Source: Candidatus Faecaligallichristensenella faecipullorum
GTDB taxonomy: Bacteria > Bacillota > Clostridia > Christensenellales > Aristaeellaceae
Direction: 5' to 3'
DNA: 56,057 bases
Assembly: GCA_018716505.1 (NCBI GenBank)
Contig: DVJW01000036.1
Location: forward strand, 1 to 56,057
The notes below the pieces were generated by a model. The model did not search any database, had not been told where the DNA came from, and saw nothing but the letters and a program-made list of their open reading frames with translations. How positions within the stretch are numbered: position 1 is the first letter of the stretch; every line of letters starts with the position of its first letter. A program made the translations under genes and the position numbers. Of this stretch, positions 1-11,377 are shown piece by piece.

Positions 1-482
1 GTTCGAAGCCTTTGGAAATTCTCAATTACATCGTAAAAGCCGAATCCCTTATTTTTATCGCGCACGGTCTGTCCCTCGTCGGGCCAGGGTTTGTGCTGAA
101 TGGCATAAGGCTTTTTGGGGTGCATCCAGAGCTGATGTTTGCCTTCCTCCCAACAGATGAGCTGGCTTTCCGAAAGACTGGTGGCGTTGGTGAGCCGAAA
201 GGGAAACTGAAGCCAAAGCCGGATGGTGTTTTCGGGGAAGAGATTCATGAGATAGTCCACCTGGTCAACGGTGGACTGATATACCACTTCCTCGTCGAGG
301 AACAAAAGTCCGACCCGCCGGTTACGCCTATGCGCCTCGAGAAGCGTCATGTAGGCCAGCACCGTGGAATCCTTGCCGCCACTTATGGAGACGATGATTT
401 TATCGAACTCGTCAAAGATGTAGCGGAGCCGTTCCTCGGCTGCCTCGGCCACGTTCTTCGGCACATATACCTGTTTGAGCAT
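1..482 (-). CDS. PP-loop ATP pyrophosphatase of the PAPS-reductase superfamily (DndC/IbrA-like). Only the N-terminal ~160 aa are present; the gene continues past the left edge.
   Basis: My own minus-strand translation from the ATG at 482 reads MLKQVYVPKNVAEAAEERLRYIFDEFDKIIVSISGGKDSTVLAYMTLLEAHRRNRRVGLLFLDEE... It contains the SGGKDS PP-loop motif, and a GGAGG lies 6 nt upstream of the ATG. It is not in the ORF track because it is edge-truncated; track ORF 12..557(+) is its antisense shadow. Confidence 0.8.
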   Translation of the reverse strand, partial: MLKQVYVPKNVAEAAEERLRYIFDEFDKIIVSISGGKDSTVLAYMTLLEAHRRNRRVGLLFLDEEVVYQSTVDQVDYLMNLFPENTIRLWLQFPFRLTNATSLSESQLICWEEGKHQLWMHPKKPYAIQHKPWPDEGQTVRDKNKGFGFYDVIENFQRLR

Positions 483-1353
483 AAAATTCCTCCAGGTGCT
501 GAATCCAATCAGCCAGATTGTGATAATAAACCTCGTCCACCGGGAGATGGGTGGTAATAAAGTGAAGGTCATGAAGTTCGCTGATTTTCAAAAAATCATT
601 GATGTCCATCTGACGCCGGGGAATATCCACCATGTGATAGGGTATCCCCGGTTGTATCTTTCGATAAACCGCCACGTTGTCCCTTCTCAACCGGCCGTTG
701 CGCGCCACAAAGTTCATATCGGGATGGGCATCCACATAGGCACGCTTAAACTGGCCGCACCAGATATGCAGCCGCCGGGGCACATTTTCGGGATCGCCCT
801 CCCCCAAGGAATTGAACAGCGCATCTCGTTCCTGCTCATAGCGCGCCCGGGCGTTGGCAGGCAGCGCCACCCCTGTCTGGTTCAAGGTGTAATAATGAGG
901 TTTGATATCCACCGGCGCTTCCTGAAGAAATTTCATTTCAAAGGGGCGCCCCTTGTATTTCCCGGGAAATTCCTTGTCCAGCAGGATCATGAAGTCGTTT
1001 GGGTCGGATACAAAGGGAAAATATTCAAAGATTAGCCGGTGGGGCGTCTGATTAAGGTAATGATGGAGACAATTGTAGGTCAGATCGCTGCGCTTTCGGG
1101 TGCGCAGGCATTCGTTGATGACCAATAGATAGGAGGCGTCCACCTTCTCCAGCAACGGGTAAAACACCCGATACATAATAATATCGTCATAGGTGTATGA
1201 CTCGGTCTCACATCCGGTGAGTGAGGCGATTTCCTTACCGTCCAGGGCAAAGGCGGGCGGCGAAAACAGAACGATCTTCTGCACGCCGCTCTCCTGTACC
1301 ATCTTCTGAATTCGATTCAGCTTTTCCGCTTTGGTATAGCCAAGCGCAATCAT
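412..1353 (-). CDS. Hypothetical protein, 313 aa, no motif I recognise
   Basis: Long ORF in the same orientation as its neighbours. Its ATG overlaps the SNF2 stop (ATGA), and its 3' end overlaps the next gene by 71 nt. No family assignment is possible by eye. Confidence 0.7.
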   Translation of the reverse strand: MIALGYTKAEKLNRIQKMVQESGVQKIVLFSPPAFALDGKEIASLTGCETESYTYDDIIMYRVFYPLLEKVDASYLLVINECLRTRKRSDLTYNCLHHYLNQTPHRLIFEYFPFVSDPNDFMILLDKEFPGKYKGRPFEMKFLQEAPVDIKPHYYTLNQTGVALPANARARYEQERDALFNSLGEGDPENVPRRLHIWCGQFKRAYVDAHPDMNFVARNGRLRRDNVAVYRKIQPGIPYHMVDIPRRQMDINDFLKISELHDLHFITTHLPVDEVYYHNLADWIQHLEEFYAQTGICAEERGRGSRGTAPLHL

Positions 1354-2744
1354 TTGTTATCCTCCGTTTCTCTCCCGTGGAGCCAAAGAACGCCATTGCG
1401 CAGCTTGAGCTCTGAGCGAAACCGCTCGGCCAGGTTTTCCTTGCGCTCCAGACAGGCCAAAATACGCTGGTCAATGGTATCCTCTGCGTAGATGTCCACA
1501 ATTTCCACATCGTGGGCCTGACCCAGCCGGTGCAGCCGGTCTTCGGACTGCGCACGGGTAGCCCAACTCCAATCATTATTATAATATACCGCAGTGTGGC
1601 AATATTGCAAGTTCAACCCGTAACCTGCGCAGGATTTATTTGCGATTAAAAAGCGGGCAGAGACACTGAAGCGATCCAATTCCTGCTGGCGGCAGCGCTG
1701 GTTGATGCCGCCATAAAACAGTGCTGTGCTGTCCCGGCCATATTCTTCCTGTAATATTTTCTGAATATCGAATAGCTCATGGGTAAACTTTACCCAGATA
1801 ACCACCTTTTCGCCGGCGTGTTTTAATACCTTTTTCAGGCATTGGATGCGAGGATTTTCATAAAGGGAATCAAACATCGGGCCATGACGGATGCTTTCTT
1901 CGGGGGCGGAAAGCATTTTATGGCCGCTGGTAACGGCCTGAAGGGCGATAAAGGTGCGATAGATGGCGATATCGCTGATGCCCCCGCTGCGCTCGGCAAA
2001 GGTACCCAGGAAAGCGCGCATGGTGGACTCATAATGGGCCCACTGTCCGGGAGTCAGGGAAAAGCCCGCCTTCAAAGCCCGCTTTCCGGGCAGAGAGAGA
2101 CAGTCGGCTTTTTTTACCGTGTAGCTATAGGGCGCGATTTTGTCCGCCAGATAGTCCACGTTCAGCACCCGGCGGATCCGGCTTTGAAAGCGATGGTCAA
2201 ATTCAAGATGGTTGGCCGCAAAGGACCAATAGGAACGGTAACCCAGGATGCGCCAATCCAAAAGATACCATTGGGCGTAAAGATCGGCTTCATTGTTGCT
2301 GATGGGCGTTCCGTTCAGCAACAGGCGGTAGGCACATCCCCGGGCCAGACGGGTGATGCGCTGGGTGCGGATGGCCGCGCTGTTTTTGACCAGATTGCTC
2401 TCGTCCACCACCAACATGGTTTTGCCCGAGGCTATAAAATGATCCAGCGCCGCGTAAAGGCTGACGCTGGAGGACAGGCTTTCAATGCCGTGGATGGCGA
2501 TAAAGGACAGCGCGCCCTCGGCGTGCTTTTTTATATCCGCGCGCAAGCTGGTCTTCACCGAACATGGGCAGAGCCACAGCACCCGGTCGATTTTTCCGGA
2601 TTCCTGGCGGCGTTTGATCATCTCCAGGGCGGTTCGGGTTTTGCCGGTGCCCATTTCCATATATAGCGCGCCCACTTTGATAGGCAAGAGTTTTTCCACG
2701 GCCCGGGCCTGATGGGGGAAAAGACCGGTTTTTAGTTCGATCAC
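1350..2744 (-). CDS. SNF2/Rad54-family DNA-dependent ATPase (helicase superfamily 2), 464 aa, short phage-like form
   Basis: Walker A MEMGTGKTRTAL; motif II VVDESNLVKN; LLLNGTPISNNEADLY (SNF2 motif III); C-terminal helicase lobe with ...GLNLQ...DWSWATRAQSEDRLHRLGQ. GTG start with GAGG upstream. Confidence 0.9.
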   Translation of the reverse strand: MIELKTGLFPHQARAVEKLLPIKVGALYMEMGTGKTRTALEMIKRRQESGKIDRVLWLCPCSVKTSLRADIKKHAEGALSFIAIHGIESLSSSVSLYAALDHFIASGKTMLVVDESNLVKNSAAIRTQRITRLARGCAYRLLLNGTPISNNEADLYAQWYLLDWRILGYRSYWSFAANHLEFDHRFQSRIRRVLNVDYLADKIAPYSYTVKKADCLSLPGKRALKAGFSLTPGQWAHYESTMRAFLGTFAERSGGISDIAIYRTFIALQAVTSGHKMLSAPEESIRHGPMFDSLYENPRIQCLKKVLKHAGEKVVIWVKFTHELFDIQKILQEEYGRDSTALFYGGINQRCRQQELDRFSVSARFLIANKSCAGYGLNLQYCHTAVYYNNDWSWATRAQSEDRLHRLGQAHDVEIVDIYAEDTIDQRILACLERKENLAERFRSELKLRNGVLWLHGRETEDNK

Positions 2745-2747
2745 GGA

Positions 2748-3875
2748 TTATACCTCGTCGTCCATCAAGTCGCTCAACACAGCCCGGCTGCTGGTCAGAA
2801 TCTGCTTCAGGCCGTCTTTCTGTTCTTTTTTTATGGTAACCGGCCGCACGCATGCCGCGCTTTCCAGCCGGGCGCGCTCCTGGGTAAGCCGCTGGCGGGC
2901 TGCCCAGCTCACCCGAAAGTCATACAGGCGTATGAGCTCACAAAGTCCTTCGAACTGGGAAAAAGGGACGGTGTAACATTTCCTTGGGTTGCTCCATTTC
3001 GGATACCGGGTCAAGGCGCTCAAGGCGGATCGGGCCGGCTGGTCCTCGCGCTCAAAATAAACCTCAAAGCTGCTTAAGGTGGCGTGGATCCATCGGGTAT
3101 GGCGCGGCTCATACACCCCGCGGATGACCATGTCCCGGGTTTTTTCGCTGGGCATGGCCACCGCAAAGCCACCCGACAACAGCTCCATGGCCAGCTCCAC
3201 CGCCCGATCCTCCGGCTCGCCATCCTGGATCAGACATTTTAGATGCCAGGCGCCGGCCTCCGCGCTCCAACGAAACCTTTGGCGGTATACGATCCTGCGG
3301 AAGGCGTCGTTGCGCTCATATATGGCCAAAATTCTGCGCTCCGTAATTCGAATTTCCACACATCCCGGTTGAGTTATCAATTCGGGACGCACCATCAGCT
3401 GTTCATTGATTGAGATGGCGGGACTTTCCACCGATTGGGTCTCAGGGGAAAGGGAGCGCTGCGCCTGAAGGGCCTTTTGAATAAACGGGCCCCGGGCCAA
3501 AACGCTGCGATTTTCGATGAACCAGCGGGCGGACGTGGTTTGCACAATGATTTTTTGATATTCGCTCACCTGTCCGGCCCACTCCATAAGCTCTTTGCCC
3601 TTCAGCCAAGTGATATTGCGTTCCAAAGTGGCCATCAGGTTGGCTCGGATGGTGGTCGCCCAGGCGACCTGTTTTTCACTTCCCGTGAGCTCGGGCAACC
3701 CCTGCGCCCGGGCGGCATCGGCGTTGCGCCGGTATTCTTCCTCCCGCGCCTTGAGCCTGCACGCGCCGCAAGGTTGGCTGAAATATTTATCCGCGCGCGG
3801 TTTGCAATTTTGAGCGGGACCGTATAGGTTGACGCTCCCTGGATGGCCGCAAATATGAGTACCCGAATAAATCAT
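2748..3875 (-). CDS. Zn-ribbon-like N-terminus plus two HARP-like repeats; putative accessory subunit of the downstream SNF2 ATPase
   Basis: Start chosen at MIYSGTH (GGAAGGGGGA SD 6 nt upstream; the track ORF starts 14 codons earlier). N-terminal C-x-H...C-x2-C cluster (HICGHPG...SQPCGACR). Two repeats fit the HARP pattern: ILAIYERNDAFRRIVYRQRFRWSAEAGAWHLKC and FEVYFEREDQPARSALSALTRYPKWSNPRKCYTVPFSQFEGLCELI. The stop lies 3 nt upstream of the SNF2 start codon. Confidence 0.7.
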   Translation of the reverse strand: MIYSGTHICGHPGSVNLYGPAQNCKPRADKYFSQPCGACRLKAREEEYRRNADAARAQGLPELTGSEKQVAWATTIRANLMATLERNITWLKGKELMEWAGQVSEYQKIIVQTTSARWFIENRSVLARGPFIQKALQAQRSLSPETQSVESPAISINEQLMVRPELITQPGCVEIRITERRILAIYERNDAFRRIVYRQRFRWSAEAGAWHLKCLIQDGEPEDRAVELAMELLSGGFAVAMPSEKTRDMVIRGVYEPRHTRWIHATLSSFEVYFEREDQPARSALSALTRYPKWSNPRKCYTVPFSQFEGLCELIRLYDFRVSWAARQRLTQERARLESAACVRPVTIKKEQKDGLKQILTSSRAVLSDLMDDEV

Positions 3876-4085
3876 GCCGTTTCCCCCTTCCCGTGCCGGG
3901 GAAATATGTGGTTGCAAGGTAAAAATATTCCCCCCGATTCGCTGGTCATTGGCGGGCCGGCGCCGCCATGCCGTTGAATCGAAGGGATGATCCCAAACGT
4001 CAAAGGAGATTGGAATGGGGCGCGGTCCGCGCTGATTATGCGTTGGACCTTGAAACTACAAGGTTCGTTTAAGGCTATATTTGCT

Positions 4086-4114
4086 AGTATATCATAAGAA
4101 AAATACTTTGTGAA
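4086..4114 (-). promoter_or_regulatory. Sigma-A-type promoter for the minus-strand HARP/SNF2/PP-loop operon
   Basis: On the minus strand: TTCACA (4114-4109), 17-nt spacer, TATACT (4091-4086) preceded by TGA (extended -10). This would give a ~200-nt leader. Confidence 0.45.
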
Positions 4115-4327
4115 CAGACATCAGTCACCTTTCGCCTCCATAAGTGCGGGAAATTTTCCGATTTTTTGAAAGAAATTCGCGCGCTGTTTTCAAATTCGTT
4201 TCTTCCTGTATTTGGAGGGAAAGTATCGGGGAAAAATGAGATTTTGTATACAAATGAAGAACTTATGTAACGAAGAAATCCATTGAGGGCCCTGAAGATT
4301 AACTTTGGGACAGCGGCGGCTCAGTGC

Positions 4328-4356
4328 TTTACGCCTGTTGATGAATGTGTTATAAT
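4328..4356 (+). promoter_or_regulatory. Candidate rsmD-coaD promoter
   Basis: TTTACG (4328-4333), 17-nt spacer, TATAAT (4351-4356) with upstream TGT (extended -10). Confidence 0.45.
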
Positions 4357-4395
4357 AATCTACATGTCAAGGAATGCATATCAGGAGACGGGTGT

Positions 4396-6540: not shown

Positions 6541-6747
6541 GATGTTCACCTCCAATTCAAATTATACCGCGACCGCCCGTTTTTTTCCAAAAGAGCGCCA
6601 TTAGATCATGATTAGAATTTCATGAGATTTCTGAGCGTGGGAAAAACAACCTGCGGATGCTTGCATGGGGCGCATTTATATGGTAAAGTGTTAATAGGTG
6701 AAAATACCCTGGGTATGTTTGAGGCTATGCCGGCGGGAGGGATGATT

Positions 6748-7046
6748 ATGTACGAATCCAAGATAAAAGACGAGCATACCGAGCTGTTGGTGAAGGCGAT
6801 TTTGGAGCTTAAAACGCCCGAGGAATGCTACCGGCTGTTCGATGATTTATGCACCATTCGCGAAATTCAGGATCTGGCCCAGCGCATGGAGGTGGCCCAG
6901 ATGCTGCGCAAAAAAACCACTTATAATGAAATTGCCCAGAAAACCGGGGTGAGTACCGCCACCATAAGCCGGGTCAACCGGTGTTTGACCTATGGCGCCG
7001 GGGGCTATGAAACGGTGCTCAAACGGCTGGAGGAGAAGGAAACCAA

Positions 7047-7050
<4 letters not shown>
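6748..7050 (+). CDS. yerC: YerC/YecD family TrpR-related DNA-binding protein
   Basis: ...CYRLFDDLCTIREIQDLAQRMEVAQMLRKKTTYNEIAQKTGVSTATISRVNRCLTYGAGGY matches the YerC signature. It sits directly upstream of pcrA-ligA, as in B. subtilis. The start could be 6742 or 6748. Confidence 0.85.

Positions 7051-11377
<4,327 letters not shown>

Follow-up and report, generated by a model that had tools for sequence, protein, structure and literature searches.

A phage-related six-gene cassette, probably encoding a DNA-modifying machine, in the chromosome of Candidatus Faecaligallichristensenella faecipullorum

The left end of the window (the whole stretch of DNA analysed, 56,057 nucleotides of Candidatus Faecaligallichristensenella faecipullorum) holds four packed minus-strand genes, the last of which is cut by the edge, raising the question of what the complete locus is and what its products do. 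The first-pass annotation read these genes as one operon encoding a Zn-ribbon/HARP-like protein, a SNF2 ATPase, an orphan 313-residue protein and a PP-loop enzyme of the PAPS-reductase superfamily, which probably marked the right-hand limit of an island or prophage reaching further left. An ORF check of the window returns the four genes (A to D), all on the minus strand, where they had been placed, and the junctions are confirmed in the sequence: a 3-nt gap between A and B (TAA-tcc-GTG), a 4-nt ATGA overlap between B and C, and a 71-nt overlap between C and D, which recurs in other loci. This tight coupling supports a single operon.

The complete locus and its conservation

The full locus, obtained from metagenome contigs, is an island of 5.8 kb comprising six genes in the order A-B-C-D-E-F. 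Left of position 1, the cassette runs only ~2.4 kb further, with the remainder of gene D followed by genes E and F (recovered in L002:10872-13300), and then come the core genes blaR1/blaI, rodA, and minD. The ParB-like partner and the methyltransferase that had been reported missing are therefore E and F, the next two genes, their apparent absence being due to the window edge cutting the cassette. The recovered flanks consist of housekeeping genes on both sides and contain no phage genes; the island is a six-gene insertion between core genes, not a prophage. Thus, the foreign, phage-related origin first proposed stands, while the prophage extending leftward does not. On the other side, the AT-rich spacer already described is a 520-nt divergent intergenic region (3876..4395) with a G+C of 0.45-0.48, as compared with 0.52-0.61 in its surroundings, that separates gene A from rsmD and coaD; the distal half of the island is also lower in G+C. 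A consensus scan of this spacer reports a promoter-like site directed toward the cassette (4114 to 4086, TTCACA-17-TATACT with TG) and another directed toward rsmD (4328-4356), two candidate sites that are suggestive only when compared with the 1.1±1.3 sites found in shuffles. A search for parS-like palindromes upstream in the window yielded no conserved one.

A literature search returned no published description of this six-gene cassette. Its full order is present in 51 of 79 independent loci from several phyla, mostly prophages (42 of the 62 first loci and 9 of the 17 GTDB loci, most others being cut by contig ends), in Clostridia, Bacteroidales, Anaerolinea, Synergistaceae, Desulfobulbales, Methylomonas, and Victivallis. 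Bacterial carriers include Caldicoprobacter algeriensis TH7C1, Anaerobacterium chartisolvens DSM 27016, and Peptostreptococcus sp. D1. Since order and tight spacing are alike in 62 of the 63 first loci mapped and in 17/17 GTDB loci, the arrangement is not due to chance; C-D-E-F form a core that is nearly universal among the loci. The island is found in every sampled contig of the source species (10/10 contexts with an identical RsmD), and a sister lineage has it at an identical chromosomal position, again in all contigs sampled. With regard to the alternative, named in the first-pass annotation, of genes universally conserved in the clade, carriers outside these two lineages are rare (17 of 185,579 species representatives in a pattern scan). 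Between the two lineages, all six genes display dN/dS values of 0.03-0.19 at dS ~0.9-1.4 and are under purifying selection, and the catalytic motifs of B, D, E, and F are intact. One sister-lineage MAG exhibits a 109-nt deletion in D, which is intact in the other contigs of that lineage. The cassette is conserved, of phage-borne origin, and kept in the chromosome of this lineage without a phage.

The phage contexts of the module vary (within a Mu-like prophage, after lysis genes, or among early genes), as fits an accessory cassette. It is frequently the last element of a late operon or a neighbour of regulatory genes, 14 loci have an HTH_3 gene and a 177-residue gene after F, and some prophage copies adjoin other accessory genes such as bpMoxR/VWA. 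Cultured phages, including Flavobacterium phage FCV-1, S. thermophilus phage CHPC1148, and C. scindens phage phiCs5676-1, carry reduced B-E-D, B-D-E or A-B-D-E modules devoid of F. Carriage so widespread among phages speaks for a function of advantage to the phage itself.

Genes A, B and C: a putative SNF2-type motor

Gene B (1350..2744, minus strand, GTG start, 464 residues) was rightly assigned as a SNF2 ATPase: Pfam reports SNF2-rel_dom (1.1e-12) and Helicase_C (6.2e-12), and PHROG reports phrog_62 (1.8e-91). Motifs I (GTGKT), II (DESN..KN), III (NGTP), and VI (QSEDRLHRLGQ) are intact, with G32, G34, K35, D114, E115, S116, Q399, D402, R403, R406, and Q409 invariant. Its matches with ZorD, DpdE, DrmD, and BrxH are partial and sub-threshold, and those with RapA and a "pilus expression-regulating Snf2 helicase" are weak and far below the family cut-offs. 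Gene B encodes a compact, intact SNF2-family ATPase, predicted to be a dsDNA translocase.

Gene A (2748..3875, minus strand) starts with the ATG at 3875 and encodes 375 residues, as backed by gene callers and homologues; the 389-residue version starting with the TTG at 3917 was set aside on the same grounds. The protein has a Zn-ribbon at its N terminus and a conserved acidic tail at its C terminus, together with a helical domain bearing the LPELTGSEKQVAWA motif and two tandem HARP/XPB-DRD-like α/β domains. In the family alignment, C9, C36, and C39 are nearly invariant (90% or more), and P61, L63, G65, K68, Q69, W72, and A73 are invariant. The gene A profile matches AcrIF23 (7.8e-4) and AcrIE7 (0.015-0.024) through a GSEKQVxWA motif, and the protein matches phrog_16123 (2.3e-18); Pfam returns no hit, its HARP family included. 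Foldseek analysis of the AF2 model (pLDDT 83) reports weak PDB hits with the XPB damage-recognition domain (probability 0.90) and MutS-beta, and BFVD hits with a HepA-related protein of Bacillus phage vB_BcoS-136 (6.6e-6) and with a 73-residue protein annotated as SMARCAL1-like (TMt 0.68). The HARP-like assignment proposed at first is therefore retained with structural support of weak-to-moderate strength. The protein is predicted to serve the motor as its DNA-structure-recognition subunit.

Gene C (412..1353, minus strand) encodes 313 residues, of which ~296 are conserved, the last ~17 being unconserved and modelled with pLDDT <50. It has no match in Pfam, PHROG, NCBIfam or PADLOC, lacks a canonical Walker A, and has NEC..RT as motif II and NQTP as motif III. 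The AF2 model (pLDDT 89, pTM 0.85) returns SF2 helicase/ATPase cores as all of its top 22 PDB hits in Foldseek, mostly SNF2-family remodellers with TMq up to 0.6 (9fpy_Y at 6.7e-8, Chd1, ISWI, Snf2h, CSB, RapA). Genes B and C display weak reciprocal HMM cross-hits, and hhalign aligns their profiles over 258 columns with motifs II and III in register (E-value 0.0096, with a reported probability of only 4%). Gene C thus resembles a degenerate two-lobe SNF2 paralogue with lost ATPase motifs, an assignment strong by fold and weak by sequence, and is predicted to be a motor subunit without catalytic activity that binds DNA or has a regulatory role. It is no orphan: its family, new and previously without annotation, counts 426 homologues when clustered at 90%, or 218 clusters at 50% identity.

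Because natural B-C fusions (P0186, P0190, and P0309) and an A-B-C fusion in one polypeptide (P0195) exist, A, B, and C likely constitute a single motor unit. By analogy with the HARP domains of SMARCAL1, gene A is predicted to provide this motor in trans with a Zn-ribbon and HARP-like DNA-structure-binding domains.

Genes D, E and F: an IbrA/IbrB pair and a putative methyltransferase

The window contains the N-terminal 160 codons (1..482, minus strand) of the 373-residue gene D. A GGAGGA box precedes the ATG at 482 by 7 nt, and gene callers choose the GTG at 464 in the window species. The start is placed at 482 since the homologues, which begin with MLKQVY/MRKQVY, and the sister-lineage protein, called from the homologous ATG (373 residues), agree on it. 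The fragment carries the PP-loop SGGKDS, invariant in the family, and matches phrog_2302 (1.5e-35), while the full-length protein matches PAPS_reduct (3.8e-13), DUF3440 (1e-9), and phrog_2302 (4.6e-86), in agreement with the first-pass assignment. Its nearest solved relatives are FAD synthase and CysD; scores are far below the CysH, CysD, and DndC cut-offs (19.7 with the DndC model, for a cut-off of 290), and the similarity to DndC, SspD, and BrxP is weak and local. The family alignment displays no conserved cysteine. Within the PAPS-reductase clade, PP-loop enzymes such as CysD, FMN adenylyltransferase, and DndC act by placing AMP on an oxyanion. Judging from its sequence, D is an IbrA-type PP-loop enzyme of the PAPS-reductase superfamily, of the adenylyl-transfer type and devoid of catalytic or Fe-S cysteines.

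Gene E (180 residues, left of position 1) matches ParB_N (8.3e-7), phrog_2159 (1.4e-56), and phrog_498, a ParB-N-terminal DNA methyltransferase (8.7e-15). With invariant DGFHR and NRARGxH motifs and a C-terminal HTH, and resembling ParB, Noc, and SbnI, it is an IbrB-type ParB/Srx protein, and D and E are an IbrA/IbrB pair. Gene F (214 residues, also outside the window) lies directly 3' of gene E, which it overlaps, and is always accompanied by IbrA and C. Its profile matches beta-class N6A DNA methyltransferases (5hek, 9.5e-7; CcrM, 3e-4; MboIIA, 3.3e-3), and it is below every threshold of the Pfam methyltransferase models, N6_N4_Mtase included. D52, P54, and W55 of the DPPW motif are invariant, followed by a D-x-C-x-G-x-G motif. 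Gene F thus likely encodes a small beta-class DPPW amino-methyltransferase.

Related systems and possible function

As first noted, the cassette fits no canonical layout: screened with PADLOC and NCBIfam models, it does not match the definitions of Dnd, Ssp, BREX, Dpd or DISARM. Among the nearest known systems are the IbrA/IbrB genes of an E. coli ECOR-9 prophage (YbdN/YbdM in K-12; phage "PAPS reductase" and "ParB-like" genes of PHROGs 2302/2159), in which a PAPS_reduct + DUF3440 protein is also followed by a small ParB_N protein; D and E match both PHROGs over their full length, and phage homologues are annotated IbrA/IbrB. The PP-loop gene is therefore the usual phage IbrA type that the first-pass annotation had considered, but outside of a prophage. 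In the cassette, however, the pair sits in fixed order between the A-B-C motor and methyltransferase F, and described IbrAB loci have no counterpart of A or C. Dnd and Ssp also associate a ParB/Srx protein (DndB) and a PAPS-reductase-clade PP-loop ATP pyrophosphatase (DndC, SspD) with an ATPase acting on DNA. However, DndC requires a three-Cys 4Fe-4S centre and a Cys dyad (PMC10853773), whereas D has no conserved cysteine, and the cassette lacks a cysteine desulfurase, DndD/E, and SspB/C, with a SNF2 motor in place of the SMC-like DndD. SMARCAL1/HARP-type annealing helicases and phage HepA-related proteins likewise combine a SNF2 motor with tandem HARP/XPB-DRD-fold substrate-recognition domains. 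Here these reside on separate polypeptides (A and B being fused in P0195), are accompanied by a Zn-ribbon, an AcrIE7/AcrIF23-like helical motif, and the inactive SNF2-like C, and would work with modification enzymes instead of in the repair of replication forks. The ParB-methyltransferase fusions of phages and plasmids (B. cereus Bce_0392, phrog_498; PMC5512222) recall the E-F overlap, but E and F are two separate small proteins, F is minimal, has DPPW instead of DPPY/F, and always occurs with IbrA and C. Lastly, B aligns with the motor domains of ZorD, DpdE, DrmD, and BrxHI/II, and SNF2 accompanies a methyltransferase in DISARM and BREX; the generic motor domain alone matches, all NCBIfam scores being far below cut-offs, and DrmA/B/C, DpdA TGT, PglZ/BrxC/BrxL, and ZorABC are not among the six island genes or the annotated flanks.

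The cassette is probably a DNA-modifying machine, best read as a predicted motor-coupled DNA-marking system. In its specific form, which is tentative and a little less likely than not, it would be a phage-derived, chromosomally kept machine that uses ATP to move along DNA and leaves a covalent mark on it. E would load onto DNA and bring in D and F, and the A-B-C motor would shift or open the duplex, giving F access to methylate an exocyclic amine, most likely adenine N6. D would spend ATP on a second modification, adenylylation activating an oxyanion on DNA or on a base. In phages, the mark would serve the phage by protecting it from host restriction or defence, or by controlling expression; in the source bacterium, the cassette would persist as a chromosomal epigenetic or self-marking system. 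Several points do not favour such a machine: the cassette encodes no nuclease or other reader of the mark, and F is missing from the reduced phage modules, so that the IbrA/IbrB/SNF2 core can do without methylation. The sub-threshold Pfam scores of F, the weak-to-moderate fold matches behind the HARP assignment of A, and the weak sequence relation of C to SNF2 also count against it, as does the genetic definition of IbrA/IbrB.

Sandt et al. (in 2002) are reported to have defined IbrA and IbrB by genetics, as proteins that activate prophage gene expression rather than modify DNA; this co-activation (of eib) is, to our knowledge, their only experimental phenotype, and database records label homologues "co-activator of prophage gene expression". 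IbrB might then be a ParB-like DNA-loading clamp or HTH regulator, as the HTH and the Noc and SbnI likeness of E suggest, while IbrA and the SNF2 motor, like RapA on RNA polymerase, would remodel nucleoid/RNA-polymerase complexes and activate or unsilence phage and host genes, the methyltransferase being an accessory epigenetic switch. The RapA-like fold of C, the weak B matches with RapA and the pilus regulator, and the late-operon or regulatory neighbourhoods, with HTH_3 and 177-residue genes in 14 loci, point the same way. Yet those B matches are far below cut-offs, the invariant SGGKDS of D and the intact motifs of F poorly fit pure regulators, the window has no conserved parS-like palindrome upstream, and HARP-like domains suggest branched or single-stranded DNA substrates rather than RNA polymerase, making this rather unlikely.

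Also doubtful is a prophage-carried, host-captured anti-phage defence or superinfection exclusion system analogous to DISARM, Dpd or Dnd, with F marking self, the SNF2 protein, A, and C scanning DNA, E acting as a nickase or NTPase, and D, the effector, attacking invaders that lack the mark. In FCV-1 and CHPC1148, which carry modules devoid of methyltransferase and which we take to be virulent (no integrase in the CHPC1148 region shown), host defence is an unlikely role. The part types (SNF2, methyltransferase, ParB, PAPS-reductase-like) are those of DISARM, BREX, Dpd, Dnd, and Ssp, with partial PADLOC matches, but A, C, E, and F match no PADLOC model. ParB/Srx domains can nick DNA (reviewed in PMC5512222), and PAPS reductase and ParBc proteins are putative effectors in PANGU-related loci (bioRxiv 10.64898/2026.04.06.716658), but the cassette contains no dedicated nuclease (PLD, REase, HNH). 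Accessory prophage positions, as beside bpMoxR/VWA, and stable retention under purifying selection in a chromosome free of phage genes would suit defence, but the housekeeping flanks form no recognisable defence island.

The highly improbable reading of an inert, decayed prophage remnant, or of misannotated sulfur-metabolism AMGs in which a PAPS reductase aids sulfate assimilation beside unrelated neighbours, draws on the common description of phage "PAPS reductase" genes as such AMGs (PMC12323421), the lower distal G+C, and the 109-nt deletion in one MAG, and is already largely refuted by six intact genes under purifying selection, a D that is intact in the other sister-lineage contigs, scores far below CysH, CysD, and DndC cut-offs, and, having no conserved cysteine, would be unable to perform CysH-type PAPS reduction, the presence of the island in every sampled contig, and strict co-linearity with DNA-acting proteins in >70 loci.

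Chromosomal setting of the six-gene island

The left end of the window carries four tightly packed genes on the minus strand, as the first-pass annotation had read directly from the sequence. Gene A (2748-3875) encodes 375 residues from its ATG, or 389 if the TTG at 3917 is used, and is followed after a 3-nt gap by B (1350-2744, 464 residues), which overlaps C (412-1353, 313 residues) through an ATGA; C in turn shares 71 nt with D (1-482), which is truncated at the edge after 160 codons and contains an SGGKDS motif. The ATG of D at 482, preceded by a GGAGGA box, and that of A at 3875 are backed by homologues and by the gene call in the sister lineage, a related lineage with the island at the same site (C 78% identical). 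A spacer of 520 nt separates A from rsmD, with a G+C content of 0.45-0.48 versus 0.52-0.61 around it, and a scan of this spacer for a parS-like palindrome or a convincing promoter returned nothing significant. Neither Rfam nor tRNA scanning returned a match in the window, hence no tRNA integration site is present.

The left flank was recovered by an exact-sequence look-up of protein C, which returned 21 metagenome contigs from the same organism. Left of position 1 lie the remainder of D (called as 367 residues on these contigs; 373 residues counted from the ATG at 482), a ParB_N protein of 180 residues, E, and a protein of 214 residues, F. Beyond F, the convergent blaR1-blaI pair is followed by housekeeping genes (M50/M23 peptidases, rodA, minD, and a PBP), and the opposite flank is formed by rsmD-coaD-pcrA-ligA. 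Integrase, structural, lysis, and replication genes contiguous with the block are absent from both flanks in all contigs. Housekeeping genes on both sides thus define the unit as an island of six genes and ~5.8 kb, bounded by rsmD-coaD-pcrA-ligA and blaR1, and rule out a prophage in this genome. The first-pass annotation expected an island or prophage running on leftward and reported neither a ParB-like partner nor a methyltransferase: core genes are found past F and phage genes on neither side, and both partners, E and the predicted methyltransferase F, are located just left of position 1. Its operon, its non-canonical layout, and its foreign origin stand, the remainder of its interpretation being partly an artefact of the edge.

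A look-up with the neighbouring RsmD returned 10 contexts, all of them with the island. Between the window and the sister lineage, dN/dS values of 0.19 (A), 0.12 (B), 0.14 (C), 0.03 (D), 0.055 (E), and 0.14 (F), with dS comparable to that of flanking core genes, indicate purifying selection on all six genes. One sister-lineage MAG (GCA_029782595.1) carries in D a 109-nt deletion (contig L015:10950-11000) by which the PP-loop is lost and the frame shifted; the deletion reflects either an error of assembly or a variant with recent loss of function. D is intact, with 373 residues, in two other sister-lineage contigs. Given this selection and the intact copies of D, the island is a maintained acquisition, probably inherited vertically, and not a decaying remnant. 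It exemplifies the domestication of an accessory phage cassette at a constant site in the chromosome, with purifying selection acting on it.

In the window species, 131 nt separate D from the downstream E, two genes that overlap in almost all other loci. The D-E spacer of the window lineage (L002:11994-12123, on the recovered left flank) comprises a G+C-rich hairpin, GCCCTTGG-CGCC-CCAAGGGC, a -10-like TATACT, and an RBS; E and F may be separately transcribed or attenuated in this lineage. The window stops within D and several independent contigs of the same organism (L087-L090) stop within or just past F, a recurrent assembly break on the blaR1 side of the island that strain variation or a repeat there might explain. 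On the other flank, a small TrpR/YerC-like gene (6622-7050) overlaps the start of pcrA (7047-9305) by 4 nt; gene calls in the sister lineage merge them into a single 764-residue protein with Trp_repressor and UvrD-helicase domains.

Genes A, B, and C

Judged by its motifs, B is an SNF2 ATPase: SNF2-rel_dom and Helicase_C both score above the Pfam cut-offs, motifs I, II, III, and VI are intact, with GxGK, DES, and QxxDRxxRxxQ invariant, and phrog_62 is matched at 1.8e-91. For C, considered an orphan at first pass, neither a Pfam SNF2 or helicase match nor a match in any other family library scanned was returned. Its predicted fold is confident (pLDDT 89), and its best Foldseek matches, with E values as low as 6.7e-8 and TMq ~0.6, are to SNF2-family remodellers, in keeping with two RecA-like lobes and SNF2-type inserts. 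Profile-profile alignment of C and B with hhalign places NEC..RT over DES..KN (motif II) and NQTP over NGTP (motif III), with weak statistics (E 0.0096, reported probability 4%), and the two HMMs cross-match weakly in both directions. The supposed orphan is therefore assigned as an SNF2 paralogue by fold, with weak profile support. In the alignment, the Walker A motif GxGK[T/S] is absent from C, the N-terminus of which has IGLxxxEK, and NEC replaces DEx in motif II. We read C as an inactivated SNF2 paralogue, a module that defines a new protein family; an exhaustive HMM search among 1.84 billion representatives reports only 218 clusters of it at 50% identity. Some members are fused to their neighbours, as B-C proteins of 787, 752, and 630 residues and as an A-B-C protein of 1144 residues. 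A, B, and C are thus physically linked, and these fusions provide Rosetta-stone evidence that they form a single motor complex. Three other C-family members, P0274 (515 residues), P0193 (374 residues), and P0215 (409 residues), possess unrelated N-terminal extensions of 75-200 residues and no B fusion.

A comprises a Zn-ribbon, a helical domain, two tandem α/β domains, and a conserved acidic tail, and Foldseek analysis of the whole chain against the PDB reports weak local matches only. The helix motif of the helical domain, LPELTGSEKQVAWA (LTGSEKQVAWA; window 3600-3700, A residues ~60-95), recurs in two anti-CRISPR proteins, AcrIE7 and AcrIF23, the latter at E 7.8e-4. All three may thus share a module for binding ssDNA or a helicase, one found widely among phage proteins (phrog_16123); AcrIE7 binds R-loop ssDNA (PMC12002350). 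The α/β domains return a weak Foldseek match with the XPB N-terminal damage-recognition domain (prob 0.90, 62 residues) and better ones in BFVD, with a HepA-related viral protein (6.6e-6) and with a 73-residue protein annotated as SMARCAL1-like (TMt 0.68). HARP is said to have an XPB-DRD/MutS fold, an assignment credited to Mason and co-workers in 2014. Since Pfam HARP returned no match in the 15 A-family members tested, the term HARP-like is, on these structural models, plausible but not proven for A. Taken together, A and B resemble a split HARP-SNF2 enzyme of the SMARCAL1 type.

Genes D, E, and F and their relation to known systems

Full-length D matches PF01507 (PAPS_reduct, 3.8e-13) and PF11922 (DUF3440, 1e-9), both above cut-off, and phrog_2302 covers its residues 3-365 (4.6e-86). 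The SGGKDS motif is invariant in the D family, in the alignment of which no cysteine is invariant or near-invariant, and the nearest solved relatives (FAD synthase, CysD, and PAPS reductase) are all distant. DndC/CysH-type sulfur chemistry is ruled out for D by the absence of a conserved cysteine. E exhibits a ParB_N domain (PF02195, 8.3e-7; phrog_2159, 1.4e-56) and a C-terminal HTH; DGFHR and NRARGxH are its invariant motifs. By these profile matches D and E are members of the IbrA/IbrB pair, which is the known kind closest to the cassette. F does not return any Pfam match at E<0.1. In its DPPW motif, D52, P54, and W55 are invariant, and D169-x-C171-x-G173-x-G175 comes later, which is the permuted order of the beta-class amino-methyltransferases (motif IV before the SAM-binding motif I). 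The F profile matches the DpnA-like 5hek across both motifs (9.5e-7), CcrM (3e-4), and MboIIA (3.3e-3), and F is a predicted beta-class amino (N6A/N4C) DNA methyltransferase. E and F resemble a split version of the ParB-methyltransferase fusions.

The canonical layouts differ from the island in their defining features, as the first-pass annotation had anticipated. DndC possesses a cysteine triad binding a 4Fe-4S cluster and a Cys dyad (PMC10853773), whereas D is devoid of these cysteines and scores 19.7 bits with TIGR03183 (cut-off 290.4); DndD (an SMC-like ATPase), DndE, and a cysteine desulfurase are absent from the six genes and their flanks. The SspD model covers the N-terminal PP-loop of D only (E 0.0039, 14.9 bits), and the partners SspA, SspB, and SspC are absent. 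With BREX type 4, the likeness is a local match to BrxP (PAPS reductase-DUF4007; 66 residues, E 2.1e-5), and PglZ, BrxC, and BrxL are absent from the locus. The DISARM models for the SNF2 protein DrmD (NF038317/NF038318) report 44-45 bits against cut-offs of 610/950, and the other Drm genes are absent. Lastly, Dpd analysis returns a motor-domain match to DpdE only (NF041062, 26 bits; cut-off 500), and the island contains no TGT-like (DpdA) gene. The open-access papers searched that mention both "PAPS reductase" and ParB do not describe an SNF2-IbrA-IbrB(-methyltransferase) module; matches to "IbrA" itself were dominated by acronyms of other meaning.

Distribution and proposed function

The comparison of the cassette covered 48 IMG/VR contigs, distant contigs from metagenomes, and 17 GTDB genomes. 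The full order A-B-C-D-E-F is found in 42 of 62 and in 9 of 17 loci, the exceptions being mostly contig-end truncations, and the constant core is C-D-E-F. The hosts belong to Clostridia, Bacteroidales, Anaerolinea, Synergistaceae, Desulfobulbales, Methylomonas, and Victivallis. Distant copies reside in prophages, one in a Mu-like element that also encodes a portal protein, Mor, and an integrase, others past a holin-amidase cassette or in an early-gene region that includes a D12 methylase and a PDDEXK protein. D alone matches 223 cultured-phage records, and no match to C was returned by tblastn in cultured phages or plasmids; the full module is thus far known from metagenomic or prophage sequences and a few bacterial genomes only. 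Versions of it occur in three cultured bacteria (Caldicoprobacter algeriensis TH7C1, Anaerobacterium chartisolvens DSM 27016, and Peptostreptococcus sp. D1) and three cultured phages, which are tractable test cases. The phage versions are reduced: in Flavobacterium phage FCV-1, B-E-D is flanked by terminase and portal; S. thermophilus phage CHPC1148 has B-D-E behind its lysin; and in C. scindens phage phiCs5676-1 the endolysin is followed by A-B-D-E. In phages, the cassette behaves as an accessory cassette.

The association of D and E with an SNF2 motor and a methyltransferase, together with the fusions between motor parts, points to a DNA-directed function. The reading we prefer, held tentatively and at somewhat less than an even chance, is that of a motor-coupled DNA-marking machine, in which E would load on DNA, the A/B/C motor would translocate along or open it, F would methylate an exocyclic amine, and D would perform an ATP-dependent activation of the adenylyl-transfer type toward a second modification. 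The phages carrying B-D-E are presumably virulent, and this argues for a role beneficial to the phage, either protection from host defences or expression control. A more specific version, possible but rather doubtful, is an unrecognised DNA-modification system, mostly prophage-borne and spread over several phyla, in which the A/B/C motor, made up of a HARP-like reader, an active ATPase, and an inactive SNF2 paralogue, would deliver along DNA the adenylyl-transferase D, the ParB/Srx protein E, and the minimal DPPW methyltransferase F, and a new kind of mark would be installed, possibly a hypermodified adenine or a backbone adduct.

A module controlling gene expression is unlikely, even if it agrees with the original definition of IbrA/IbrB, which was reportedly a genetic one, the activation of prophage gene expression. 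Little probability is given to a self-marking defence system. PADLOC, NCBIfam, and Pfam scans for known defence or modification systems returned only sub-cut-off generic motor or PP-loop similarity. An inert remnant or a sulfur AMG, the latter being how phage "PAPS reductases" are discussed in the literature (PMC12323421), is very improbable and largely refuted by the selection on the genes, their co-linearity, and the absence of catalytic cysteines.

Pairs of the IbrA/IbrB type, "PAPS reductase + ParB", are present in many phage genomes and are routinely labelled sulfur AMGs or "co-activators" without a mechanism; the cassette suggests that the AMG label is wrong. If the DNA-modification reading is true, it would give a molecular function to phage IbrA/IbrB genes now mislabelled as sulfur-metabolism "PAPS reductases". 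A new DNA mark, if involved, would bear on phage-host conflict and on base-modification signals in long-read metagenomes, and might yield enzyme tools.

A minority of loci (L021, L023, L024, L040, L041, L046, L047, L067, and L079) are devoid of A and B and possess instead a second, stand-alone PAPS_reduct protein of ~250 residues. In L021, L023, and L024, its gene precedes C, with three unannotated proteins (about 210-280 residues) encoded just upstream. F is followed, in 14 further loci, by genes for an HTH_3 protein and an uncharacterised protein of 177 residues.
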